Source: an uncultured Treponema sp.
Lineage (GTDB): Bacteria; Spirochaetota; Spirochaetia; Treponematales; Treponemataceae
NCBI GenBank assembly: GCA_937876905.1
Contig: CALEFI010000003.1
Location: forward strand, 6,541-70,540
Reading direction: 5' to 3'
DNA length: 64,000 nt
In this document: piece by piece, positions 1 through 11,190 of the stretch
Numbering within the stretch: position 1 is the first letter of the stretch
How the letters are laid out: each line of letters starts with the position of its first letter
The notes under the pieces: generated by a model
Told to the model about the DNA's origin: nothing
The model's input: only the letters and a program-made list of their open reading frames with translations
Databases searched by the model: none
Program-made: the position numbers and the translations under genes

Positions 1-734
1 ACAATTTCTGCAATATCATGTAGCTCTTCTCGAGAATAACGATTAAAATCAATACAAGCATCAAACCTACGTAGTAATGCCTTGTCAAAAGAATCAAAAA
101 GATTTGTAGTTGCAATCATTACGATTTGGTCATTTAGATTATCCATTCCTTTTAAAACGGCAGAGGTAGCACGTCCCATTTCTCGTAAATCATTAGAATT
201 TGTTCTATCCAACGCAATTGAATCAATCTCATCAAAAAGAATAATCATTCTTTCAGGATGGACAACAGAATTAAGTTGGCAAAAAAGATTTGATATATTT
301 TTTGCTGTTTGTCCCAATTTACTATCAATTAAGTTATCAAAATCAACAACATATAATTCTCTAGAAAGAATACGAGCAATTTGTTTCACAGTTTCTGTTT
401 TTCCAGTACCGGGAGCCCCATAAAAAAGGTATTTATTAATTCCGACATTTTGTCCAATTGCATTTACGATGCCCAAAATATCATTTTTAATAATTTCCGG
501 AAGCGGTAGAGGTTCCTTTGAATATTCAATTCTATGTAAAAAGGAATTCTCATACTCATTCATTTGAGGAACAAAGGTATTTGCTTTAGAAAGAAGAGCC
601 ATGATATATTCTGCAAGTTCTCTATCTCCCGAAGAATTAAAATCATTTGCAATTGCATAGGCTTCATCTCTAAAAGAAACATCATTTCCTTCTGCATAGT
701 ATTTAATGAGATTGATTACATTTTTCTTTTTCAT
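1..734 (-). CDS. Classical AAA+ ATPase (FtsH/CDC48-type module after a ~100-aa N-terminal domain); 3' end runs off the window
   Basis: My reverse-strand translation starts at ATG 734 (MKKKNVINLIKYYAEG...), preceded by AAGAGGTG. Motifs: Walker A YGAPGTGKT, Walker B MIILFDEIDS, sensor-1 ATTN, ALLRRFD. It is absent from the ORF track because no stop lies in the window. The plus-strand ORFs 82-423 and 564-761 are antisense to it. Confidence 0.8.
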   Translation of the reverse strand, partial: MKKKNVINLIKYYAEGNDVSFRDEAYAIANDFNSSGDRELAEYIMALLSKANTFVPQMNEYENSFLHRIEYSKEPLPLPEIIKNDILGIVNAIGQNVGINKYLFYGAPGTGKTETVKQIARILSRELYVVDFDNLIDSKLGQTAKNISNLFCQLNSVVHPERMIILFDEIDSIALDRTNSNDLREMGRATSAVLKGMDNLNDQIVMIATTNLFDSFDKALLRRFDACIDFNRYSREELHDIAEI

Positions 735-754
735 AAGGTCACCTCTTATATGAA

Positions 755-783
755 AGTATAGCATACTAGGGACAAATTTACAA
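755..783 (-). promoter_or_regulatory. Putative sigma70-type promoter for the AAA+ ATPase gene
   Basis: On the minus strand: TTGTAA (783-778), 17-nt spacer, TATACT (760-755), about 20 nt upstream of the RBS and ATG. Confidence 0.35.
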
Positions 784-816
784 CATTTGGGACATTACTA
801 TTTAATATAAAAAATA

Positions 817-845
817 TTGACGATTGATTCTAATTTTTGTATATT
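817..845 (+). promoter_or_regulatory. Putative sigma70-type promoter for the small-ORF transcript
   Basis: TTGACG (817-822), 17-nt spacer, TATATT (840-845). This predicts a ~180-nt leader before ATG 1033. Confidence 0.4.
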
Positions 846-883
846 CAGGATGTATGTATAATACTGAGGAACGTCGTTCCAAT

Positions 884-953
884 AAAAAACCTCAGGCGGC
901 AACCTGAGGTAATAAAAGAAACATCTGACGGGCAGATATTTTCATAAAAAAAT
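884..953 (-). ncRNA. Candidate ~70-nt cis-antisense sRNA opposite the leader of the small ORF
   Basis: Minus-strand promoter-like TTGTAT (989-984), 17 nt, TAGAAT (966-961). There is an internal 5-bp hairpin (ATCTG/CAGAT around 923-937). A GC-rich 7-bp hairpin CCTCAGG-6nt-CCTGAGG (909-890) is followed by TTTTTT (889-884) on the minus strand. No minus-strand ORF here could use that terminator. Confidence 0.3.
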
Positions 954-1032
954 ATGAATGATTCTATCAGTTATTCCTTGAAAATACAACCCATACAGAT
1001 GTTTCCTACTTCATATAAAAAGGAGGAAGCTT

Positions 1033-1206
1033 ATGGCAAAAAATCCACCTGTTGGTGACAACCGTAGAAATGGTGCTGTTCGCAAGCGTTCACAAGTTTT
1101 GAATCCCAAAACGAAACAGTATGTGAAACGTGATGCTGAAACAGGCCGTTTTGTGGCTGTCAAAAAAGATGGAACACCATTTAAAGGTGTCAGAAAAGAA
1201 AAGTAA
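1033..1206 (+). CDS. Small, highly basic hypothetical protein (57 aa)
   Basis: AAAGGAGGAAGCTT-ATG at 1033. Translation: MAKNPPVGDNRRNGAVRKRSQVLNPKTKQYVKRDAETGRFVAVKKDGTPFKGVRKEK. It has 17 K/R residues of 57 and no hydrophobic segment. It falls below the ORF-track length cutoff. Confidence 0.6.
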   Translation: MAKNPPVGDNRRNGAVRKRSQVLNPKTKQYVKRDAETGRFVAVKKDGTPFKGVRKEK

Positions 1207-1219
1207 TTTTCTTATTTTC

Positions 1220-1265
1220 TCTCCCTTGCAAATTCAATAATAGCAAGGGAGAAATTTGTATTTTT
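1220..1265 (+). terminator. Intrinsic terminator/attenuator-like hairpin between the small ORF and the caspase gene
   Basis: 10-bp stem TCTCCCTTGC (1220-1229) / GCAAGGGAGA (1243-1252), followed by AATTTGTATTTTT. Confidence 0.5.
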
Positions 1266-1277
1266 GAGGAGAATAAT

Positions 1278-2246
1278 ATGGGACGAAAAGCTCTCGTAAT
1301 TGGTATTGATAATTATCAAACTGCACCTTTACACGGTTGTGTAAATGATGCAAAAGAAATCGCTTCTTTGTTAAAAAATAATGAAGATAACTCTAAAAAC
1401 TTTGATGTTCGTCTTGAATTAGATATTCAAAAAAAGGAAGAACTTTCAGATGCAATACAAGCTTTATTTAAAGGAGACGATGAAATTGCATTATTGTATT
1501 TTTCCGGACATGGAACAACAAAAGATGATGGTGAGTATCTCTGTACTCCAGACTACACACCTAATTATCCAGGCGTAAAACTATCCGATATTTCTACATG
1601 GATAGTTAATTCTAAATGTAAAAATAAAATTATTATCTTGGACAGTTGTTTTTCAGGAGGAATGGGTAATAATCCGATTATGGCAGACTGTGCAGAACTT
1701 GCTAAAGGAGTTACTATTCTGACAGCAAGTAAAAGTACAGAGTATTCTGTTGAATGTAATGGGCATGGCATTTTTACTTCTCTTTTGATTCAAACATTAA
1801 AAGGTAGTGCTGCCGATTTACTTGGCAATGTAACTATTGGCTCAATCTATGCCTATATTGATAAAGCTCTTGGACCTTGGGAACAAAGACCAGTATTCAA
1901 AACAAATGTTCATGAATTTGTTTCACTTCGTAAAGTAAAAGCTCCCATCGATTGTAAAGATTTGAAAACATTAAAGGATTTATTTACAAATTCGAAAGAA
2001 GAATTTCCTTTAAATCCTTCTTTCGAATTTACTAATAATCCAAAAGAAAAGCATTCTTATACGAAACCATATGCAACAGAAGAGAATGTTGAGAAGCTAA
2101 AACTATTACAACGCTTAGAACGAGTTGGACTTGTAGAGCCTGTTGATACCGAACATTTGTATTTTGCTGCAATGGAGTCAAAGTCGTGTAAATTAACAGC
2201 CTTAGGGCAATATTATCTTTTGCTTGCTCAGAAGGAAAGAATATAA
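1278..2246 (+). CDS. Caspase-like (peptidase C14 / metacaspase-fold) protease with an unassigned ~100-aa C-terminal domain
   Basis: The N-terminus ALVIGIDNY, His in LLYFSGHG (His78) and Cys in IIILDSCFSGG (Cys124) match the caspase catalytic dyad layout. RBS GAGGAG lies upstream. Confidence 0.85.
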   Translation: MGRKALVIGIDNYQTAPLHGCVNDAKEIASLLKNNEDNSKNFDVRLELDIQKKEELSDAIQALFKGDDEIALLYFSGHGTTKDDGEYLCTPDYTPNYPGVKLSDISTWIVNSKCKNKIIILDSCFSGGMGNNPIMADCAELAKGVTILTASKSTEYSVECNGHGIFTSLLIQTLKGSAADLLGNVTIGSIYAYIDKALGPWEQRPVFKTNVHEFVSLRKVKAPIDCKDLKTLKDLFTNSKEEFPLNPSFEFTNNPKEKHSYTKPYATEENVEKLKLLQRLERVGLVEPVDTEHLYFAAMESKSCKLTALGQYYLLLAQKERI

Positions 2247-2256
2247 GGAGAGAGAA

Positions 2257-2643
2257 ATGAAAAAGAGAGCATTTATTAGTTTTGATTACGATCATGATTA
2301 TGATATAAAACAATGTCTTGTTGGTCAGGCAAGAAATCCTGATTCACCTTTTGAAATTATTGACATGTCAATAAAAGAACCTATCAGTTCCAATTGGAAA
2401 GAAAATGCTAGACAAAGAATCAGAAGGTGCGATGTTGTTGTTATTTTGTGTGGTGAACATACAGATACAGCATCAGGAGTAACAGCAGAATTAACAATTG
2501 CTCAAGAAGAAGGAATACCTTATTTCTTACTTCGAGGACGTTCTAATAGACCTTGTGCATGGCCTAATCATCGATATTCGACTGACAAGATGTACAATTG
2601 GACATGGGATAACCTAAAACTGCTGTTTCCAGGAGCGAGATAG
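2257..2643 (+). CDS. TIR-like protein (DUF1863 / ThsB-type)
   Basis: MKKRAFISFDYDHDYD..., then CDVVVILCGEHT and SGVTAELTIA (conserved Glu). ATG 2257 with RBS AAGGAG lies 10 nt after the caspase stop. The track ORF start at 2224 overlaps the caspase gene and was not used. Confidence 0.8.
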   Translation: MKKRAFISFDYDHDYDIKQCLVGQARNPDSPFEIIDMSIKEPISSNWKENARQRIRRCDVVVILCGEHTDTASGVTAELTIAQEEGIPYFLLRGRSNRPCAWPNHRYSTDKMYNWTWDNLKLLFPGAR

Positions 2644-2645
2644 TC

Positions 2646-3122
2646 ATGAAAGTTTTTATCTCTCATCAGCAAAATGACTCAGAAATAGCAACACAAACAT
2701 ACAGAGAATTACAGTCATATAATGTGAAAGCTTACTTGGATGTTTTTGATAATGCTCTTGTTTCTAATAGTCAAGCACTAACTGAACATCTAAAAAGTAT
2801 TGTTAGGAAAAGTTCTGATATTCTAGTCGTAATGTCAGACAGAACTAAGTTATCTTGGTGGGTTCCATTTGAAATAGGAATTGCTGCAAATCAAGATTTA
2901 CCAACAGTAACTTATTTACAAAACTATGTCACTTTACCTGAATATCTAGATTATTGGCCACGATTGAAAAATCTATCAGATATTTCAAAATATGTTGCAG
3001 CAAGAAAAAATCGTTTACAAGAAGAAAATGTTCGCAAAAACTTAGACTCCTCTGTAGAAATGTTTAGTTATAAACCTTCCACAACAGAAGAATTCTACAA
3101 GAACTTAAAAGCTATGTTATAG
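2646..3122 (+). CDS. TIR-domain protein (TIR_2-like)
   Basis: MKVFISHQQNDSEIA..., DILVVMS, and SWWVPFEIG (W..E motif, Glu76). Starts 2 nt after the stop of the upstream TIR-like gene. Confidence 0.8.
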   Translation: MKVFISHQQNDSEIATQTYRELQSYNVKAYLDVFDNALVSNSQALTEHLKSIVRKSSDILVVMSDRTKLSWWVPFEIGIAANQDLPTVTYLQNYVTLPEYLDYWPRLKNLSDISKYVAARKNRLQEENVRKNLDSSVEMFSYKPSTTEEFYKNLKAML

Positions 3123-3132
3123 TAAGAACCTG

Positions 3133-3176
3133 TCTCTCTTAAAAACTTAACAAACTTTTAAGAGAGATATTTTTCT
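3133..3176 (+). terminator. Intrinsic terminator of the caspase/TIR operon
   Basis: 12-bp stem TCTCTCTTAAAA (3133-3144) / TTTTAAGAGAGA (3156-3167), followed by TATTTTTCTT. Confidence 0.55.
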
Positions 3177-3199
3177 TAGATAAACGATAATTTAGCAGC

Positions 3200-3286
3200 C
3201 TAAACCTGAACAGAATTTACATCTATTTCCCCACTCATCAACTTTGGTAGTAAAGTATCACGGAGAGAAATCAATCGTTCGTTTTC
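3200..3286 (-). pseudogene. Relic of an hsdS 3' end (last ~28 codons plus stop)
   Basis: Minus-strand translation ENERLISLRDTLLPKLMSGEIDVNSVQV* compared with the intact HsdS C-terminus ENIRLTQLRDTLLPKLMSGEIDVESVKI* (5571-5657). No upstream coding continuation. Confidence 0.6.
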
Positions 3287-3316
3287 ACAGACATTGTTGT
3301 AAATATGTTCTGTATT

Positions 3317-5503
3317 TTATTTTTCAAATGAACCAAATAATTCTTCTATATCTTGAAAATCAGAGAAATGTTCCTCAAACTCATAATCGTCTCTATCATA
3401 ATTTTCTTCCATTTCTTTTTCTTCTTTCTTTTCGAATAACTCAGTTAATGTATTTAAATGGACATCTGAAATAGGAAAACATAATTTTTCTAGATTCTCA
3501 AAAGATTCTTGAATTTGTTGAACATCATATGAACTTGAACCTGTATCAGAAGCCCAATCCATATCATTTTCTATACTTTTATTAATTATTTCATTTTTTA
3601 TTTTTTCAGGAAGAAAATTAATTTTTTCATTAATATGTAAATATAATAAACATTCTTCTGTCGTATCAACTTCTTTAAAATCTTGAAAAAGTTTTTCTTT
3701 CACATCGTCGGTAAATGATTGTATTGGAAAATTTATCATAATGTCTGTTAATGAAGAATTTAATTTTTCACCTTTAAGAAAAACATCTAAAACAGTATTA
3801 CAGAAAGATTGTTTTAGTTCTTTTAATTGATATTTTTCGATATATATTGAAATTAAACTAAGTCTTGATGTTTTTGATTTATAAGAACTACCTGTATTAT
3901 TTTTTCGTAGAGATTCATAGAAAATATTTTCACACAGCGAGTTTAAAATTCCAATCTTTTTGTCCTTTCCTATTATGTCATCTTTTAAGACATAGATTTT
4001 TTGATCCCAATATAATTGTTTTAAATCAAAAAATTCAGGTTCGATATCTTGATTTTCTGAAATTTTACCCTTTATATAATCAATCAAAGATGGATTATGA
4101 AATGAAATAAAGTTTTCATTCCCTTTCTTAGAAATTACAATAAATGAATTTTCTAGTTCACTTAGAGATTGATTAAATATATCTGTAAATTCACTTCTAG
4201 ATAGCGACGGATTACTTTTATTTAACCATAAGAAAGAAATCTTCCTTAAATCATCAATATAAATATTATCATTCAAAAAATAGAGGGTATATAAAATATA
4301 TTTACATTCTCGACTAATATGTTGATTAAAAGCTTTATCCCATATTTTCTTCGGATGATTTAAATTTGCTATAAAGCTCTTATAGTAATTTTCCGGACTC
4401 AAATTCTCATACTCACGAGCTCCTGTTTTTGTCATCCATTCTATTAATCGAGGAGAATAATTCTGATGATTGATAATTTTATTATATCGCTTATCTTCTA
4501 TTATAAATTTGCAGAAATTAACGGGAACATTTGAGAAATACAAGTGATTATATAAAATTTGAGCTTTTTGAAATGGAGAGTAATCAGATAATTTTAACAC
4601 TGATGATTTACCATCAAGAGAAGATAGCTTTTCACTCTGTTGTATACCTTGGTTAAAAATATATTCTCTTGTTGTTAAGATAAACTTTGTAGATTGGTTT
4701 AAAATTTGCAAAATTTTGGTATAATCATCAAACTCTCCTTTTTCTTCAAACTGTGTTGCCCCAAGAAAATCATCATAATAGAAAATTTGCTTTTCGTCTT
4801 TCTTTAAAAGATTAAAAAAATCTTTCAATTTTCTTATTTGTATAAAAGTATAACCAGATTTACAAAAATATAAGCAAAGCATTTCAGCCATAGTAGTTTT
4901 ACCGATTCCAGGGATTCCTGAAATAATACAAAAAAAGTTTGATTTTAATAAATTAATAGCTTTAGAATAATAATCATTTTTTACCCATAGTTTTATTTTA
5001 TCAGACCATATTTCTTTCGTAATTTCAGAACGTGTATATAAATCACTATGAATAATTCTTTCTAAAACAGAAGCACTATCCATCCATAATTTTGGATGCC
5101 TTTTTTCAATTTCTGGATATTTTGATAAGATTGAATTAATTGCAACAGAATCTATAATATCATCAGATTCAATTGGAAACTCAGAAAAGATTTCCAAAAT
5201 ACTATCTTTATTTGCTGCAGTAAGACTTAAAGAGGTTACAATTATATATTTAGATGGAGAAAGTTTTTTGAGTTTTTCTACTTCTGCTTTCAACCCTGAC
5301 TTCAATTGAGTAATACCAGATTTTTCATAATGTTTACATTGAACAATAATTCTATCATGACTCTTGAAACAGCGTAAATCAATTCCACCATCTCTACCTG
5401 ATGTAAAACTTTCAAACTCTTTTTGATATTTTGTTTCAACAATACTTTTTGCTAATTGTTCAAAATCAAATGGAGATAAATTTTGAAATGTATAATTTGG
5501 CAT
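3317..5503 (-). CDS. Mrr-like restriction-endonuclease domain fused to a STAND/NACHT-like P-loop NTPase with a helical C-terminal region (Avs-like)
   Basis: N-terminus SGRDGGIDL...IIVQCKHY (D...QxK nuclease motif). Walker A ISGIPGIGKTT and Walker B IFYYDDFLG. About 330 aa of C-terminal helical region with an acidic tail. ATG 5503 with RBS GAGGAGG; the track start at 5539 lacks an RBS. Confidence 0.8.
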   Translation of the reverse strand: MPNYTFQNLSPFDFEQLAKSIVETKYQKEFESFTSGRDGGIDLRCFKSHDRIIVQCKHYEKSGITQLKSGLKAEVEKLKKLSPSKYIIVTSLSLTAANKDSILEIFSEFPIESDDIIDSVAINSILSKYPEIEKRHPKLWMDSASVLERIIHSDLYTRSEITKEIWSDKIKLWVKNDYYSKAINLLKSNFFCIISGIPGIGKTTMAEMLCLYFCKSGYTFIQIRKLKDFFNLLKKDEKQIFYYDDFLGATQFEEKGEFDDYTKILQILNQSTKFILTTREYIFNQGIQQSEKLSSLDGKSSVLKLSDYSPFQKAQILYNHLYFSNVPVNFCKFIIEDKRYNKIINHQNYSPRLIEWMTKTGAREYENLSPENYYKSFIANLNHPKKIWDKAFNQHISRECKYILYTLYFLNDNIYIDDLRKISFLWLNKSNPSLSRSEFTDIFNQSLSELENSFIVISKKGNENFISFHNPSLIDYIKGKISENQDIEPEFFDLKQLYWDQKIYVLKDDIIGKDKKIGILNSLCENIFYESLRKNNTGSSYKSKTSRLSLISIYIEKYQLKELKQSFCNTVLDVFLKGEKLNSSLTDIMINFPIQSFTDDVKEKLFQDFKEVDTTEECLLYLHINEKINFLPEKIKNEIINKSIENDMDWASDTGSSSYDVQQIQESFENLEKLCFPISDVHLNTLTELFEKKEEKEMEENYDRDDYEFEEHFSDFQDIEELFGSFEK

Positions 5504-5513
5504 TTTTTCCTCC

Positions 5514-5570
5514 TCACAACTCCACCCCAATCTTCCCACTCATCAACTTTGCCAACAAAAACTCGTGGAA
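5514..5570 (-). pseudogene. Second degenerate relic of an hsdS 3' end, directly after the intact hsdS stop
   Basis: Minus-strand translation FHEFLLAKLMSGKIGVEL* resembles LLPKLMSGEIDVE. It shares an exact 17-nt core, CCCACTCATCAACTTTG, with relic 3200-3286. Its stop codon overlaps the RBS of the STAND gene. Confidence 0.5.
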
Positions 5571-6728
5571 TTATATTTTAACAGATTCAACATCTATTTC
5601 TCCAGACATAAGTTTTGGCAAAAGTGTATCACGGAGTTGTGTCAGTCGTATATTTTCTTGTTGCTTAAATAAAATTTGTTCATAAATCGATTCAACAATA
5701 TATGTAAATTTTTCAGAGTCAGTATTTGATAAAACGGTAATAGTTTCTGTTTCAAAATCTCTTGTTACAATGGCATCGAAAGTTGCTCCATTTGCTTTAT
5801 ATTTTAAAGAAGAAATCACTTCTAGTGTATAAAAATATGCCAGTAATTGATTGTTATCTTTACCTTTCAATGCATAACATGATTGATTCATAGCCATTGG
5901 TAAGCCTGCAAGACATACTTTGCCGACAGTTCCTCTGGCTGTTACAAAAATAGTATTTACTGGATATAACTTGCTATTGCAGTTTTCTAGTCCATTTTTG
6001 GTTATTGTCTTTTCCGTTATTAAGCAATAAGGATTTCCAACATCCTTGGGGGTAAAGAAAGGAATGTCTCCATTCCAATAATTTTCATTATTTGTTTTTG
6101 GAGTTCCTCCTCCCAAAATATCAATCACATCAGTGAATTTAACTAACTTGGAAGAATTATTTAAAAAACGCTTGAAAATCGCCTGTGCCTGCTGCTCCAA
6201 ATTATCGTTTATCTTATTGTTCAGCTCGATTTTATCGTCGAGGGAAGAAAGTATTGCGGCAATTTTTTGTTGCGTGGCAAGTGGTGGAAGATTGATTGAA
6301 AGATTTGTAACGACATCAGTTTGAACTCTTTGTCGCCCGGAAGAACCAACCATAGATTTTATTGCAGGTTCTCTGATTATAGAACTTGTAATAAGATAAT
6401 ATATAAAATATGGGTCTGAAATATTATCTTTTGCACGAAAAACTATATATTCTGTGGAACCAAAACCGATTTCGTTATCATCAAGAATATTTACCATTGC
6501 AGTTTTTCCATTTTCAAGACAAGGAGTAATTCGAGCCATAATTGTATCTTTATTTCTAAATTTTGCTCCACCAGAATATGCTTCAGTAGAAAAACTTGAA
6601 ATAGAGCGACAATAGGGTTGAAGTATATCCATACCTATTTTTTTTGCGATAGCCCCTTTTTTTATTGATTCTGTTGGATTTATTTCTACAACTTCTCCCA
6701 GCTTACATTCCTTCCAATCTTCTTTCAT
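5571..6728 (-). CDS. hsdS: Type I restriction-modification specificity subunit
   Basis: Two variable TRD halves are separated by the conserved LPPLATQQKIAAILSSLDDKIELNNKIN. The C-terminal conserved helix is LRDTLLPKLMSGEIDV. ATG 6728 with RBS AAGGAG; the N-terminal extension in the track ORF covers a repeat element. Confidence 0.85.
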   Translation of the reverse strand: MKEDWKECKLGEVVEINPTESIKKGAIAKKIGMDILQPYCRSISSFSTEAYSGGAKFRNKDTIMARITPCLENGKTAMVNILDDNEIGFGSTEYIVFRAKDNISDPYFIYYLITSSIIREPAIKSMVGSSGRQRVQTDVVTNLSINLPPLATQQKIAAILSSLDDKIELNNKINDNLEQQAQAIFKRFLNNSSKLVKFTDVIDILGGGTPKTNNENYWNGDIPFFTPKDVGNPYCLITEKTITKNGLENCNSKLYPVNTIFVTARGTVGKVCLAGLPMAMNQSCYALKGKDNNQLLAYFYTLEVISSLKYKANGATFDAIVTRDFETETITVLSNTDSEKFTYIVESIYEQILFKQQENIRLTQLRDTLLPKLMSGEIDVESVKI

Positions 6729-6744
6729 TTTACTACTCCTTTTC

Positions 6745-6781
6745 CCCAGATTTTGCGTAGCAAAATCGAATCCGTGTGGCA
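6745..6781 (+). repeat. 37-nt hairpin-containing repeat, copy A (identical to 19311-19347)
   Basis: CCCAGATTTTGCGTAGCAAAATCGAATCCGTGTGGCA, containing the 8-bp stem / 3-nt loop GATTTTGC-GTA-GCAAAATC. It lies in the hsdM-hsdS spacer, about 20 nt 3' of the hsdM stop. Confidence 0.8.
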
Positions 6782-6801
6782 ATATCCTCACTGGGCACGC
6801 C

Positions 6802-8322
6802 CTATATCTTCCAACCAATTCCTGCAAGGTTTTGCTTAATTTCTTCTTCTAGTTTGTGGCTTTGTTCAAACATTTGGCCTAGTTCTGTTGTAAGGCGGGT
6901 CATTTTTTCATCAAAAGGTTCGGCATCCTCTTCTTTTTCCTCAATTCCGACATAGCGGCCAGGGGTGAGGATGTAGTCTTGTTTTGCAATTTCTTCTGTA
7001 GTAGCAACGGTACAAAAGCCTTTTTGATTTTCTAAGGTTCCGTTTTGGAAGTCTGTAAAGGTTTGTGAAAGACGATTGATGTCTTCTTCAGAAAAATCAC
7101 GGTGCTTGCGGTCTACCATGTGGCCCATGTTTCGGGCATCAATAAACAGGGTTTTTCCAGCTTGCCTCTTATTGCGGCTGATGAACCAGAGGGTCACGGG
7201 AATTGTCACGCTGTAAAAAAGCTGGGTGGGCATGGCCACAATGCCTTCTATCAAGTCTGCCTCGATTATTTTACGGCGGATTTCACCTTCGCCACTTGTC
7301 TGGGTGCTAAGCGCTCCGTTTGCAAGAACAAGTCCGATTTTTCCATTTGGTGCAAGGTGATAAATCATGTGCTCTATCCATGCATAGTTGGCATTTCCTG
7401 CCGGTGGCAGTCCGTATGCCCAGCGGGGGTCGTTCTGCAGCTTGTCCTGTCCCCAGTTGCTCAGGTTAAACGGTGGATTTGCCATGATGTAGTCGAACTT
7501 TTGAGTTGCATGAAGGTCATTGAAAAAGGTGTCTTCGTGGTGCTTTCCAAAGTTTGCATCAATGCCACGGATTGCCATGTTCATTTTTGCCATCTTCCAA
7601 GTGTCAGCATTGGCTTCCTGTCCGAAAACTGAAATGTTGCTTCTGTTTCCGGCATGTTCCTGTATGAACTTTACGGACTGAACGAACATTCCGCCAGAAC
7701 CACAACAGGGGTCATAAACTCGTTTTCCTTCCGTTGGCTTGAGGATGCCAACAATCGTCTTTACGACACTGGCAGGTGTGTAGAATTCGCCGCCCTTTAC
7801 CCCTTCGTAGCTTGCAAACTGTGCGATGCAGTATTCATAAGTACGGCCCAGCAGGTCTTTGCTTGCTTCGGTGTCGCTCATGTCCATGTTGGTAAAGACA
7901 TCCACGACGTTTCCCAGTACTCGTTTGTCAAGTTCTGGGTTTGCGTAGTTTTTTGGGAGCACCCCCTTTAAGCTTCGGTTGTCGTCTTCAAGAGCAAGCA
8001 TTGCTTTGTCGAGAAGGGTTCCAATTTCTGGTGTGTGCGCTGCCTTTGCAATTTCGCTCCAGCGGGCTTCTGGCGGAACAAAGAAGATATTTTCAGCTTC
8101 ATAGGCATCAGGGTCGTCTTCAAATCCATCACCTTCTTCCACCAGCTCGTTATATTTCTTTTCAAATGCAGTCGAGATGTATTTTAGAAAGATGAGTCCA
8201 GTAAAGATTTTGCGGTAGTCTGCAGCGGGAATATGCCCCCAAAGCTCACAGGCCGCATCCCAAATCTGCTGCTCAAAGCCGATTGTTGCAGACGATGATT
8301 TAGGTGATTTTTTCTTTGCCAT
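6802..8322 (-). CDS. hsdM: Type I restriction-modification N6-adenine DNA methyltransferase subunit
   Basis: HsdM N-terminal domain (IWDAACELWGHIPAADY). SAM-binding motif VYDPCCGSGGMF. Catalytic motif MANPPFN. Confidence 0.9.
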   Translation of the reverse strand: MAKKKSPKSSSATIGFEQQIWDAACELWGHIPAADYRKIFTGLIFLKYISTAFEKKYNELVEEGDGFEDDPDAYEAENIFFVPPEARWSEIAKAAHTPEIGTLLDKAMLALEDDNRSLKGVLPKNYANPELDKRVLGNVVDVFTNMDMSDTEASKDLLGRTYEYCIAQFASYEGVKGGEFYTPASVVKTIVGILKPTEGKRVYDPCCGSGGMFVQSVKFIQEHAGNRSNISVFGQEANADTWKMAKMNMAIRGIDANFGKHHEDTFFNDLHATQKFDYIMANPPFNLSNWGQDKLQNDPRWAYGLPPAGNANYAWIEHMIYHLAPNGKIGLVLANGALSTQTSGEGEIRRKIIEADLIEGIVAMPTQLFYSVTIPVTLWFISRNKRQAGKTLFIDARNMGHMVDRKHRDFSEEDINRLSQTFTDFQNGTLENQKGFCTVATTEEIAKQDYILTPGRYVGIEEKEEDAEPFDEKMTRLTTELGQMFEQSHKLEEEIKQNLAGIGWKI

Positions 8323-8391
8323 AGTGCTATCCCTCTGAAAATAAAGTATTCAAAACGATTTGAGGCAATCCCCCAAGCCACGCTCCTAACC

Positions 8392-8454
8392 ACTCCCCTC
8401 ACCCCTCCAGCTGGGCGGAGACCTCCTCCCACTGGGCGGTCAGCTGGTCAATCC
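8392..8454. repeat. Displaced, slightly diverged copy of the ABC-F gene 3' end (att-like direct repeat, left copy)
   Basis: Aligns by eye with 9143-9206 with only a few mismatches and one indel. It encodes ...IDQLTAQWEEVSAQLEG* compared with the genuine ...IDQLTAAWEEVSAQLEG*. Confidence 0.75.
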
Positions 8455-8672
8455 TCCATCTCCGCATCTGGCACTTTTGCCAATACCGCCAGAAATTTAT
8501 CTCGGGAACCCCTTGCACCTCTCTCTTCCAAATACCTCTGCGTTTCCAAGGCAGAAATCTTCTCCGCCACAGCCGATACAATGAATTGATTTATAGAAAT
8601 TTTATCCTTGACAGCAATTTCTTTTATCAATGAATGATATGAATCAGGTAGCCTCAAACTCAGTGTTGTCAT
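8448..8672 (-). CDS. RHH/HicB-family type II antitoxin
   Basis: MTTLSLRLPDSYHSLIKEIAVKDKISINQFIVSAVAEKISALE is a ribbon-helix-helix pattern. Its start lies 1 nt after the PIN gene stop. Confidence 0.75.
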   Translation of the reverse strand: MTTLSLRLPDSYHSLIKEIAVKDKISINQFIVSAVAEKISALETQRYLEERGARGSRDKFLAVLAKVPDAEMED

Positions 8673-8673
8673 T

Positions 8674-9093
8674 TTATCCCTCCATTTCCGCCAGAAATTC
8701 TTTTGGCGTTTGAATTTTTATGCCTAAATCTTCTGCCCGCAGAAAATCCCGTTTATTGTAAGTAATAACCCTTTCCGCTCCTGCACTGATTGCCAGCTCC
8801 AGCACATGGTCATCAAATTGATCCTTCAAATAAGGTCTCCAAAGATAAAATATCTTTGTCTTTATGCCAACTGCACAGAGGTAGTCGATAAAGTCTTCAA
8901 TATCAGAGTCCAAAATAATCCCCTTATCAAGATGATTTTTAAGGACTGCCTCATACTCCAATATCAAAGGAACAGAAACCGCACAATCAAACATTCCAGT
9001 CCCAACTTGTGAAACCAGCTCAAACGCCTTGCCTTTATTGCTTTGCAACGAGGAGAGGATCACATTTGTATCGATTACAATCAAGGGTCTCAC
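8674..9093 (-). CDS. PIN-domain toxin (PIN_3-like)
   Basis: IVIDTNVILSS (N-terminal acidic Asp), ...LEYE..., ...DDHVLELAISAGAERVITYNKRDF, matching the PIN acidic-residue layout. Confidence 0.8.
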   Translation of the reverse strand: MRPLIVIDTNVILSSLQSNKGKAFELVSQVGTGMFDCAVSVPLILEYEAVLKNHLDKGIILDSDIEDFIDYLCAVGIKTKIFYLWRPYLKDQFDDHVLELAISAGAERVITYNKRDFLRAEDLGIKIQTPKEFLAEMEG

Positions 9094-9142
9094 TTATAGT
9101 ATTATATATAATACTATAAGTGGTTGTCAATTTGCATTATCA

Positions 9143-9206
9143 ACTCCCCTCTACCCCTCCAGCTGGGCAGAGACCTCCTCCCAGGCGGCGGTGAGCTGGT
9201 CAATCT
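9143..9206. repeat. ABC-F 3' end, right copy of the att-like direct repeat
   Basis: See 8392-8454. This copy is the functional end of the ABC-F CDS. Confidence 0.75.
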
Positions 9207-11190
9207 TGGTGGCAAGGGCTTCCACTGCGGCCTGCACCTGGCGGCTTTTCTGGGCATCGCTGTAGACCTCCGGCTGGGCAAGCTGGTTTTCCAGCTGGAG
9301 CTTTTCCTCCTCGGCGGCGGCGATTTCCTCCAGCAGCCGCTCCTCCTCCCGCTCCAACTTGCGCCGCTGGTTTCTCAGTCGCTTCTGCTCCTCGTACTGC
9401 AGGGCACCTGCACTGGGAGCACTGACATTGGAAGCCATAGCACTCTGACCGCTTTGCCTGCCGCCACTTGCCCCGCTGCCAGACCCCAGCTGGCCGGGCA
9501 CCACTTCCCTGCCCTCAGCCTCAGCTGCAATCCGCTCCAGGTAGTACTCGTAGCTGCCGGGAAAATTCCTGGCACGGCCACAGGAGGTTGGAGTTCCCGC
9601 TTGGGCAACACCAGCCTCTCCCTCCAGGGATTCCGGCGGCGGGGAAAGCTCCAGCACCCGGGTGGCCAAGGACTGGATAAAGCCCCGGTCGTGGGAGACA
9701 AAGACCACCGTCCCGCCAAAATCCTTCAAGGCATCCAGCAGCACATCCTTGGAATGCAAGTCCAAGTGGTTGGTGGGCTCGTCCAAAATCAGCAGGTTTA
9801 CGGGTTTGAGCAAGAGCTGCAACAGGGCCAGGCGGCTCTTTTCCCCACCGGAAAGCACATCCAGGCTCTTGAACACATCGTCACCACGGAACAGGAAGGA
9901 GCCCAGCATGTCTCGTACCCGTGGCACCAGCTCCAAGGGTGCCTGACCCTCGATATATTCCAGCACCGTGATGGAGCCGCAAATCCGTTCCGCACTGTCC
10001 TGGGAAAAGTAGCCCACCGCCACCCCAGCTCCCTCCCGCACGCTGCCCTGGAAGGCGGCATCCTCCTTGGCAAGGATTTTCAGCAGGGTGGTCTTTCCTG
10101 AGCCATTGCAGCCCACCACCACCAGCCGCTCCCCCTTTTCCAGTACCAAGTCCAGCTGGCTCAGCACCTGATGCACCCCATCGTAGGACTTGCTGACACC
10201 CTCCAGTGTCAGCACCAGGCGGCCTGAATGAGGAGCGGGAGGAAAGGTAAAGCGCATCTTTTTCAGCGACTCTGGAATCTGCACCTGCTGGGCCAAAAGC
10301 CTGTCCAGCATCTTCTGCCGCTCCTGGGCCTGGGCCGCCTTGGTAGCCTTGGCCCCGAAGCGGCGGATAAAGTCCTCCAGCTTGCGGATTTCCTCCTGCT
10401 GCTGCTGGTAGGTAGCCATGAGGCTTTCCAGCTCCACCTGACGAACCTTCTCATAGTTGGTGTAGTTGCCTGCATAGCGGCGTAGCTGACCGTTGAACAG
10501 CTCGTAGACCTCGGTAACGGTGGTATCTAAAAAATATCGGTCGTGGCTTACCAGCAGGAATCCGCCGGAAAAGGAATTCAAGAATTCCTCCAGCCAGTTG
10601 CGAGCCTCCAGGTCAAGATAGTTGGTGGGCTCGTCCAAGAGGAGGATGTCCGGCCGCTGCATCAGGGCCTTGGCCAGGGCAATGCGCATCTGCCAGCCGC
10701 CGGAAAATTCCTGGGTCTGGCGGTCCAGGTCACGGCGGGAAAAGCCGAGTCCCAAAAGCACCTGCTCCGCCTGGGCCTCCCGCCGATACCAGCCAGACTC
10801 CTCCAGCCAGGTGGTAATCTGATGGTGGCGCTCCAGCAGGGGGCCGCTTTTTTGACTGGAATCCTTGAGGGCATCGCCGATTTCCTCCAGCTCCCGCTGC
10901 AGCTGGTAGCCATAGTCAAAGGCCCGGTCAGCCTCCTGTCGCAGGGTGCAGCCTGCATGGACAATGCCAGACTGAGGCAGATAGACAATGCGGGCATCCT
11001 TTTGGGCAATCCGCTGGCCGCTGTCGGGAGCCAGCTCCCCGGCCATAATCTTCATCAGGGTGGATTTGCCTGAGCCATTGGCACCACTTAAAGCCGCCTT
11101 TGTTCCTGCCGCAAGATTTACCGACACATCCTTCAGGATGTCCCGATCACCAAAGGCCAGGGATACCTTTGAGAACTGCACGAAGGCCAT
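9151..11190 (-). CDS. ABC-F family ATPase (two ABC cassettes, C-terminal coiled coil)
   Basis: GANGSGKST / LSGGWQMR / LLLDEPTNYLD, then GCNGSGKTT / LSGGEKSR / LILDEPTNHLD. No transmembrane domain. Glu/Lys-rich coiled-coil tail. Confidence 0.9.
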   Translation of the reverse strand: MAFVQFSKVSLAFGDRDILKDVSVNLAAGTKAALSGANGSGKSTLMKIMAGELAPDSGQRIAQKDARIVYLPQSGIVHAGCTLRQEADRAFDYGYQLQRELEEIGDALKDSSQKSGPLLERHHQITTWLEESGWYRREAQAEQVLLGLGFSRRDLDRQTQEFSGGWQMRIALAKALMQRPDILLLDEPTNYLDLEARNWLEEFLNSFSGGFLLVSHDRYFLDTTVTEVYELFNGQLRRYAGNYTNYEKVRQVELESLMATYQQQQEEIRKLEDFIRRFGAKATKAAQAQERQKMLDRLLAQQVQIPESLKKMRFTFPPAPHSGRLVLTLEGVSKSYDGVHQVLSQLDLVLEKGERLVVVGCNGSGKTTLLKILAKEDAAFQGSVREGAGVAVGYFSQDSAERICGSITVLEYIEGQAPLELVPRVRDMLGSFLFRGDDVFKSLDVLSGGEKSRLALLQLLLKPVNLLILDEPTNHLDLHSKDVLLDALKDFGGTVVFVSHDRGFIQSLATRVLELSPPPESLEGEAGVAQAGTPTSCGRARNFPGSYEYYLERIAAEAEGREVVPGQLGSGSGASGGRQSGQSAMASNVSAPSAGALQYEEQKRLRNQRRKLEREEERLLEEIAAAEEEKLQLENQLAQPEVYSDAQKSRQVQAAVEALATKIDQLTAAWEEVSAQLEG

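Follow-up and report, generated by a model that had tools for sequence, protein, structure and literature searches.

Type IV Thoeris is composed of a TIR protein, ThsB, and a caspase-like protease, ThsE (Rousset et al., bioRxiv 10.1101/2024.10.24.620036, with a Science version in 2025). Defence is abolished by mutation of either PsTIR E79 or PsCaspase C129 (Rousset et al., 10.1101/2024.10.24.620036), and the cloned DNA of the validated systems is provided in Table S2 of that study. A published MacSyFinder rule assigns loci to type IV Thoeris where a TIR_2 (PF13676) or ThsB (PF08937) gene lies within one gene of the protease, and a DefenseFinder profile, Thoeris_IV ThsA_Casp4, also exists (methods of the NAR 2026 paper). 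Multiple sensors have been described for type I Thoeris by Ofir et al. (bioRxiv 10.1101/2021.01.06.425286), who reported two consecutive thsB genes without BLASTP similarity to each other, each of which works with the single effector, and found their phage ranges to be additive.

Here we analysed a 64,000-nucleotide stretch of DNA (the window) from a spirochaete-like gut lineage whose nearest relatives are Treponema MAGs. Judged by gene content and homology, the locus is very probably type IV Thoeris with a caspase-like effector and two TIR genes. The cassette is a bona fide type IV Thoeris homolog that carries an additional TIR, and its architecture has been catalogued before.

The caspase-like protease and its adjoining TIR genes

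The cassette comprises three open reading frames, all on the plus strand, at 1278-2246 (322 aa), 2257-2643 (128 aa) and 2646-3122 (158 aa), with gaps of 10 nt between the protease gene thsE and the first TIR gene and of 2 nt between the two TIR genes. All three proteins scored above the Pfam curated cut-offs, the first matching Peptidase_C14 (PF00656; E=1.8e-21, 77.4 bits, cut-off 21.4), the second ThsB_TIR (PF08937; E=2.7e-8, 34.6 bits, cut-off 21.2) and the third TIR_2 (PF13676; E=4.8e-9, 37.2 bits, cut-off 28). In addition, the PADLOC 2023 models gave 'caspase' and ThsB matches in the cassette, with ThsB models matching the third protein at E-values down to 6.6e-12. The locus accords with the published type IV rule, as two TIR genes lie directly downstream of the protease. 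A Pfam scan of six neighbouring proteins found no SIR2, SLOG or Macro gene, which places the locus outside types I, II and III, and the single STALD match fell on a TIR itself, below threshold (E=0.018). The original prediction had proposed a Thoeris-like system with a caspase effector, in which a C14 caspase fold with an intact His78/Cys124 dyad is followed 10 nt downstream by a ThsB-type TIR and 2 nt further by an unrelated TIR_2-type TIR, with no ThsA-type SIR2, SLOG or Macro gene nearby; all of these points were borne out, the system corresponding to type IV Thoeris.

The thsE gene (1278-2246) encodes the caspase-like (C14) effector protease of 322 aa. Residues 3-322 of ThsE aligned with residues 2-321 of EcCaspase, the protease of the validated E. 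coli 328 system, with 42% identity (E=2e-80), and this alignment takes in the entire C-terminal region that had previously been left unassigned. EcCaspase itself (321 aa, 'caspase family protein') was read beside EcTIR, the operon having been located in 14 complete E. coli genomes with the published EcTIR DNA. Both His78 and Cys124 were invariant in a 12-sequence family alignment that spans phyla, and the published start of PsCaspase, MRKALVVGI, fits the family consensus over these first nine residues. We also obtained a full-length match to phrog_18397 (E=8e-79), while NCBIfam NF047832 ('caspase, EACC1-associated type') covered the caspase domain only and remained, at 102.6 bits, below its cut-off of 140.

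Consistent with these assignments, Foldseek matched the AlphaFold (AF2) model of ThsE (pLDDT 83, pTM 0.81) to MALT1 paracaspase and to caspases-4 and -11, with E-values down to 2.6e-13, all of them generic hits. A sequence search of the PDB with ThsE gave weak metacaspase matches only (E ~0.01), and neither this search nor Foldseek found a ThsE structure in the PDB copy. Likewise, an exact-sequence look-up in the assembly index returned no identical copy of the protease. The family as a whole is very large and extends across bacteria and archaea; its best 120 matches listed are 317-375 aa long, nearly all of them ~322 aa. Since EcCaspase has 321 aa and the family relatives are nearly all of this size, sequence comparison indicates that ThsE is canonical in length and not short, as had been supposed.

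The C-terminal domain of ThsE (residues ~208-322), modelled alone with 31 diverse sequences, reached a pLDDT of 89.5. It contains 21 columns that are invariant across the 31 sequences and is alignable throughout with EcCaspase. Against the PDB, the domain model found its best matches in winged-helix proteins of the MarR/PadR type, but with E>0.01 and TM ~0.4 these were too weak for any fold to be assigned. Rousset et al. (bioRxiv 10.1101/2024.10.24.620036) hypothesised a C-terminal receptor with an N7-cADPR pocket at the dimer interface. This domain is the presumed signal receptor of ThsE, in agreement with the original prediction, which had named it as the candidate, and a dimer-interface N7-cADPR pocket is our best guess for how it is built.

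Two TIR types and their distribution among related loci

The two TIR proteins, here called A-type and B-type, show no similarity to each other by BLASTP. The A-type thsB gene (2257-2643) encodes a ThsB/DUF1863-type TIR of 128 aa, counted from the ATG at 2257, the mechanical ORF opening at an upstream TTG at 2224. This protein belongs to the same TIR type as the validated PsTIR (35% identity, E=2e-20), and its predicted catalytic residue, Glu78, aligns with the catalytic Glu79 of PsTIR and is invariant in 92 of 92 relatives. The B-type thsB gene (2646-3122) encodes a TIR_2-type protein of 158 aa with a conserved C-terminal extension of ~70 aa. Its predicted catalytic residue, Glu76, resides in a WVPFEIG motif and is invariant in all 20 relatives compared, and its similarity to EcTIR is weak (26% over 94 residues, E=0.025).

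To place this arrangement among related loci, we scanned one genome per species, which yielded 80 loci encoding relatives of the protease, and classified the flanking ORFs by phmmer and iterated HMMs. In the 62 related loci with complete flanks, two TIR genes were the commonest layout (28 loci, versus 23 with one), and the remaining loci contained either three (seven loci) or none (four loci). The exact order of caspase, A-type and B-type TIR is shared by 11-12 loci, which belong to Treponema, Clostridia, Lachnospiraceae and Oscillospiraceae. The founding study points in the same direction: Table S1 of Rousset et al. contains an 'Additional TIR IMG Gene ID' column, filled in ~45 of ~200 rows in the part of the table counted by hand. 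Algoriphagus faecimaris DSM 23095 (L042 of our survey) has a type IV Thoeris entry there that includes an additional TIR, and its TIR-caspase-TIR order agrees with the consecutive gene IDs given; Parcubacteria GW2011_GWE2_39_37 (L025) is also among the entries of the type IV table. Because additional TIRs are listed in Table S1 and two TIRs form the commonest layout of the 62-locus survey, the two-TIR type IV layout is not new, and the earlier view that it matched no described architecture did not hold.

The defence island and the small basic ORF

The cassette sits in a low-GC stretch (23-38%) beside host DNA of 55-60% GC, and its DNA homology with the five nearest relatives (L001-L005), at 76-80% identity, extends only from ~870-881 to ~3190. 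It is a cassette of ~2.3 kb that is carried in a low-GC defence island within a type I restriction-modification locus. On its left, a minus-strand gene that runs from 734 off the left edge of the window encodes an IetA-like AAA+ ATPase. Its match to NCBIfam 'anti-phage ATPase IteA' (E=1.1e-30, 107 bits) stays below the cut-off of 510 because the window edge truncates the gene, and no partner protease, as in IetAS, is visible. On its right, and convergent with the cassette, the gene at 3317-5539 encodes a Mrr_cat-nSTAND3 NTPase that matches PADLOC PDC-S73 over its full length (E=1.5e-138), and the genes further out are hsdS, hsdM and a PIN toxin pair. Both the AAA+ ATPase and the STAND NTPase were considered as parts of the system and rejected: all 80 related loci lack them, and homology of the cassette stops at ~880 and ~3190. 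Because of this absence and of the bounded homology of the cassette, the two genes are independent tenants of the defence island, outside the Thoeris system. The original prediction had linked a small basic ORF and the divergent AAA+ ATPase to the system; both genes are present, and neither proved to be a feature of it, the ATPase being missing beside the system in 80 of 80 related loci and the small ORF accompanying the cassette in the five nearest relatives only and occurring elsewhere beside other cargo.

The small basic ORF (1033-1206, plus strand) encodes 57 aa and corresponds to phrog_12550 and to the PADLOC candidate PDC-S38 (PDLC05010; E=8.6e-33, residues 1-57 of 57). Its 1332 homologs are spread across phyla, from spirochaetes to Bacteroidota, Planctomycetes and methanogens, with Treponema, Methanobrevibacter, Hymenobacter, Marinifilum and Aquisphaera among those listed; the best 120 of the 1332 are 74-91% identical, nearly all of them at least 75%. 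Only in L001-L005 does it precede thsE (5 of 80 loci). Given its absence from the other 75 type IV loci and its occurrence elsewhere beside non-TIR cargo, it was rejected as a core Thoeris gene.

The surroundings of the small ORF vary considerably. On contigs with a common upstream flank, one and the same small protein is followed in some cases by caspase, ThsB and a 192-aa gene and in others by a 203-aa ThsB gene, and in a mobilisable element the small ORF stands after the relaxase operon and before variable cargo. In 80 further metagenome loci it was often found 43-64 nt downstream of TIR-caspase-TIR cassettes. Metagenome loci also placed it downstream of a type I Thoeris of the form ThsB-ThsA(SIR2_2+STALD)-ThsB and of a DUF1883-TIR gene, and in others the same slot held non-TIR cargo, namely an HTH+M78 peptidase, a DEAD helicase or a 481-aa protein without a Pfam match. 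At least eight distinct genomic contexts show the small ORF at a distance of 40-130 nt from, and on the same strand as, a lone TIR gene or a Thoeris system of type IV or type I. On its far side there is typically a convergent gene, either for a 1310-aa ResIII+Eco57I enzyme or hsdR. We read the small ORF as a backbone mini-gene that edges a cargo-exchange slot by restriction-modification genes, with Thoeris as frequent, non-exclusive cargo. PDC-S38 was not mentioned in the literature searched.

Between the stop codon of the small ORF and the ribosome-binding site of thsE (1266-1272), folding and covariation reveal a terminator- or attenuator-like element on the plus strand, consisting of a stem-loop (1220-1252) and a T-rich run (1253-1265). 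The stem-loop has an MFE of -19.6 kcal/mol (z=-2.96), five of its 12 pairs show compensatory two-sided changes across seven loci, and 95 of 98 loci have a strong structure after the small ORF. Since no space is left for a thsE promoter past this terminator-like element, thsE may be expressed by read-through. The region upstream of the cassette is also conserved (880-1032, plus strand) and contains a hairpin (889-910) that scored as terminator-like on the minus strand, a palindrome, ATCTG-N5-CAGAT (923-937), a TTGAAAATACAA box and a strong AGGAGG ribosome-binding site. These motifs are invariant columns in a seven-locus alignment and are confined to the window clade (14-15 of 98 loci). A consensus promoter scan of positions 500-3500 returned 13 sites compared to 12.8 in shuffled sequence, and no promoter was therefore named; a search of positions 1-10000 against Rfam gave nothing at E<=0.1.

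Proposed mechanism and comparison with known systems

At this locus the analysis shows which genes and domains are present, that the effector is homologous over its full length to a validated one, that the catalytic residues are retained and that the architecture recurs. The mechanism, with its signal molecule, protease specificity, protection against phage and sharing of tasks between the TIRs, is inferred by homology to the characterised systems of Pseudomonas sp. 1-7 and E. coli 328. Upon phage infection, a TIR protein would sense a phage cue and, by means of its catalytic Glu, would convert NAD+ to N7-cADPR. ThsE would bind this signal with its C-terminal domain, probably across a dimer, and binding would switch on the His78/Cys124 protease, which would then cut many cellular proteins after arginine so that the infection is aborted. 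Most likely, the two TIRs respond to different sets of phages and act on one common effector, which would make the defence range additive; the two-thsB result from Bacillus dafuensis is a direct precedent for this model of two sensors and one effector.

That the B-type TIR is instead no independent sensor and acts only with another TIR, as an obligate, hetero-oligomeric partner or as a modulator of the signal, seems unlikely to us. Its distribution is what suggests such a role: in the survey of 80 loci, a sample skewed to relatives of the window locus, the B-type stands beside thsE in 27, always with an A-type or third-type TIR except in L010, where the A copy is frameshifted, and L070, which is cut at a contig edge, so that another TIR is present or possible in every case. 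It is the sole TIR in none of the 80 loci, whereas the A-type is alone in 28, and the survey thus shows one TIR type appearing solely as second TIR; the 2-nt gap between the TIR genes further suggests coupled expression. However, Glu76 and 47 other positions of the B-type are at least 90% conserved, as for an active enzyme, its pairing with varied partners argues against a specific heteromer, and in the sole tested precedent, that of B. dafuensis, each of the unrelated ThsB proteins works alone with the effector. The B-type could accordingly be read in two ways, as an add-on sensor only or as dependent on a partner TIR. Less probable still is a signal other than N7-cADPR, or the production of different molecules by the two TIRs with only one of them activating ThsE. 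The good conservation of the presumed receptor domain, with its 21 invariant columns and its alignment with EcCaspase, speaks against this, and the failure of TIR lysates from other Thoeris types to activate ThsE suggests a selective effector. On the other hand, both TIRs are distant from characterised ones, and since the proteins of the cassette are moderately identical (35-42%) to their validated counterparts and genes of a single published TIR cluster occur in type I as well as type IV configuration, the signal could differ from N7-cADPR.

The small basic ORF bears on a further alternative, in which the cassette includes it and the stem-loop as functional components, for example as a leader or attenuator that holds a toxic protease to a low level of read-through, or as a small regulator or substrate, so that the functional unit would comprise four genes. 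We regard this as doubtful. In the five nearest relatives, conservation of the cassette extends to the ORF and its flanks (DNA homology 880-3190), and the stem-loop with its compensatory changes abuts the ribosome-binding site of thsE; yet both validated type IV systems function without such an ORF (Rousset et al., 10.1101/2024.10.24.620036), and it is missing from 75 of 80 type IV loci. The same small protein precedes swapped cargo between otherwise identical flanks and elsewhere stands right after Thoeris cassettes of type IV and type I, which could speak for a functional link, but it also lies beside non-TIR cargo, including hsdR and a mobilisation operon, and the side on which it stands, upstream or downstream of the cargo, varies as would be expected of a backbone gene bordering an insertion hot spot. 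Of comparably low probability is that PDC-S38 and the stem-loop form a portable companion module of nucleotide-signalling defence cassettes, which could use read-through to set the level of a toxic effector, or could serve as a small regulator or bait. The recurrence of this mini-gene and stem-loop with swapped defence cargo is the sole lead with some novelty: PDC-S38, which flanks interchangeable cargo beside restriction-modification genes, could be the sign of a hot spot for cargo exchange or of a shared regulatory leader.

Taken together, our results support the functional part of the original prediction, a Thoeris system with a caspase effector, and not its claim to novelty, given that the layout is already catalogued, the protease is of canonical length and the neighbouring genes are no core parts of the system. 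The locus adds little to type IV Thoeris, for which the family, the N7-cADPR signal, the activity of the effector and multi-TIR variants have been published. It does provide a natural operon of one effector and two TIRs in which to ask whether additive sensing, so far reported for type I only, extends to a caspase effector.

Finally, we compared the cassette with known systems. PDC-S38 and PDC-S73, which its neighbours match over their full length, are PADLOC candidate families with no mechanism described. The use of a C14-fold protease for abortive infection, as in type IV Thoeris, is shared by gasdermin-activating proteases and by SAVED-CHAT/PCaspase of type III CRISPR, and promiscuous arginine-directed cleavage has been proposed for both PCaspase and ThsE (Rousset et al.); no gasdermin, CRISPR, SAVED or CHAT genes were found among the neighbours scanned. 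Activation differs between these systems, depending on a TIR-made nucleotide in type IV Thoeris and on proteolytic processing in the other caspase-like defence proteases. The cassette resembles type IV Thoeris in its ~322-aa C14 protease, which shares the C-terminal domain and is 42% identical to EcCaspase, in its adjoining short PsTIR-type TIR with a catalytic Glu, in its defence-island setting and in its additional TIR. Unlike the validated type IV systems, it carries a second TIR of a type that is absent from both, and its gene order is effector-first, where the published type IV table has both orders. In the succession of one effector gene and two consecutive, BLASTP-unrelated TIR genes it is like the type I Thoeris of B. 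dafuensis FJAT-25496, but it has a caspase-like protease where that system uses a SIR2-SLOG NADase, which a cADPR isomer activates.

An interchangeable cargo beside a small basic protein

The small ORF upstream of the Thoeris cassette (1033-1206, plus strand) encodes a 57-aa basic protein of the PADLOC candidate family PDC-S38, which corresponds to phrog_12550. Among the best 120 of 1332 homologs, proteins from distant phyla and from archaea share ~75-91% identity. Comparison of the window with the other loci carrying PDC-S38 homologs (L082-L089, L090-L095 and the 80 metagenome loci L096-L175) revealed that the gene lies on the same strand as its cargo and immediately adjoins it, and that the cargo is interchangeable between loci. 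This cargo includes type IV Thoeris, located either upstream or downstream, as well as type I Thoeris, lone TIR genes, an HTH+M78 peptidase and a DEAD helicase, while a ResIII+Eco57I enzyme or hsdR is the usual neighbour.

Non-coding elements flank the small ORF on both sides. Between its 3' end and the thsE ribosome-binding site we found a stem-loop followed by a T-run (1220-1265), supported by covariation, with compensatory changes at 5 of 12 pairs across the seven loci compared; strong structure is present 3' of the small ORF in 95 of 98 loci. Two conserved elements lie upstream: a hairpin (889-910), in which L005, one of the loci nearest to the window, shows compensatory changes, and a palindrome, ATCTG-N5-CAGAT (923-937). 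Outside the clade of the window, the conservation of both extends only to the L090/L091 group.

TIR combinations beside ThsE

Within the 80 loci encoding ThsE relatives, a set biased towards relatives of the window, the B-type TIR was never the sole ThsE-adjacent TIR (0/27 B-type loci, counting one with a frameshifted A-type copy, L010, and one ending at a contig edge, L070). The PsTIR-like A-type was the sole TIR in 28 loci. In two caspase-ThsB cassettes, L091 and L093, a third gene (192 aa; 5612-6190 in L091) occupies the place of the B-type TIR; its product had no match in a Pfam scan and might represent either a diverged TIR or a sensor of some other type.

Neighbouring defence genes

On the minus strand, an AAA+ ATPase gene (1-734) runs past the left window edge, and its top NCBIfam match, 'anti-phage ATPase IteA' (E=1.1e-30), is below the cut-off; the gene probably belongs to a separate IetAS-like system. 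Convergent with the cassette, a minus-strand gene (3317-5539) encodes a 740-aa Mrr_cat + nSTAND3 NTPase (PADLOC PDC-S73, E=1.5e-138). In L005 the cassette lies ~1 kb from hsdS-like DNA and no STAND homolog was detected at that locus, so the NTPase gene seems to have been inserted separately. Type I R-M genes hsdS (5571-6827) and hsdM (6802-8322) follow, and after them a PIN-family toxin (8674-9093) preceded by its small partner (8448-8672). At ~9100 GC content rises abruptly from ~23-38% to 55-60% and host genes begin (ABC-F, MraY-like, PurH).

Other ThsE loci and phage relatives

Two further arrangements were observed: a Methanomethylophilaceae archaeon (L059) carries two divergently oriented ThsE copies, each with TIR genes, and L041 encodes a 1067-aa caspase-domain protein just past its Thoeris system on the opposite strand. 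The window's ThsE protease matches the phage protein family phrog_18397 over its full length (E=8e-79). The validated E. coli-type TIR+caspase operon (L081; strain 165, NZ_CP020509.1, 3886579-3887956) resides within a prophage, with the holin, lysozyme and Rz lysis genes on one side and the Q antiterminator on the other, which is a typical moron position.
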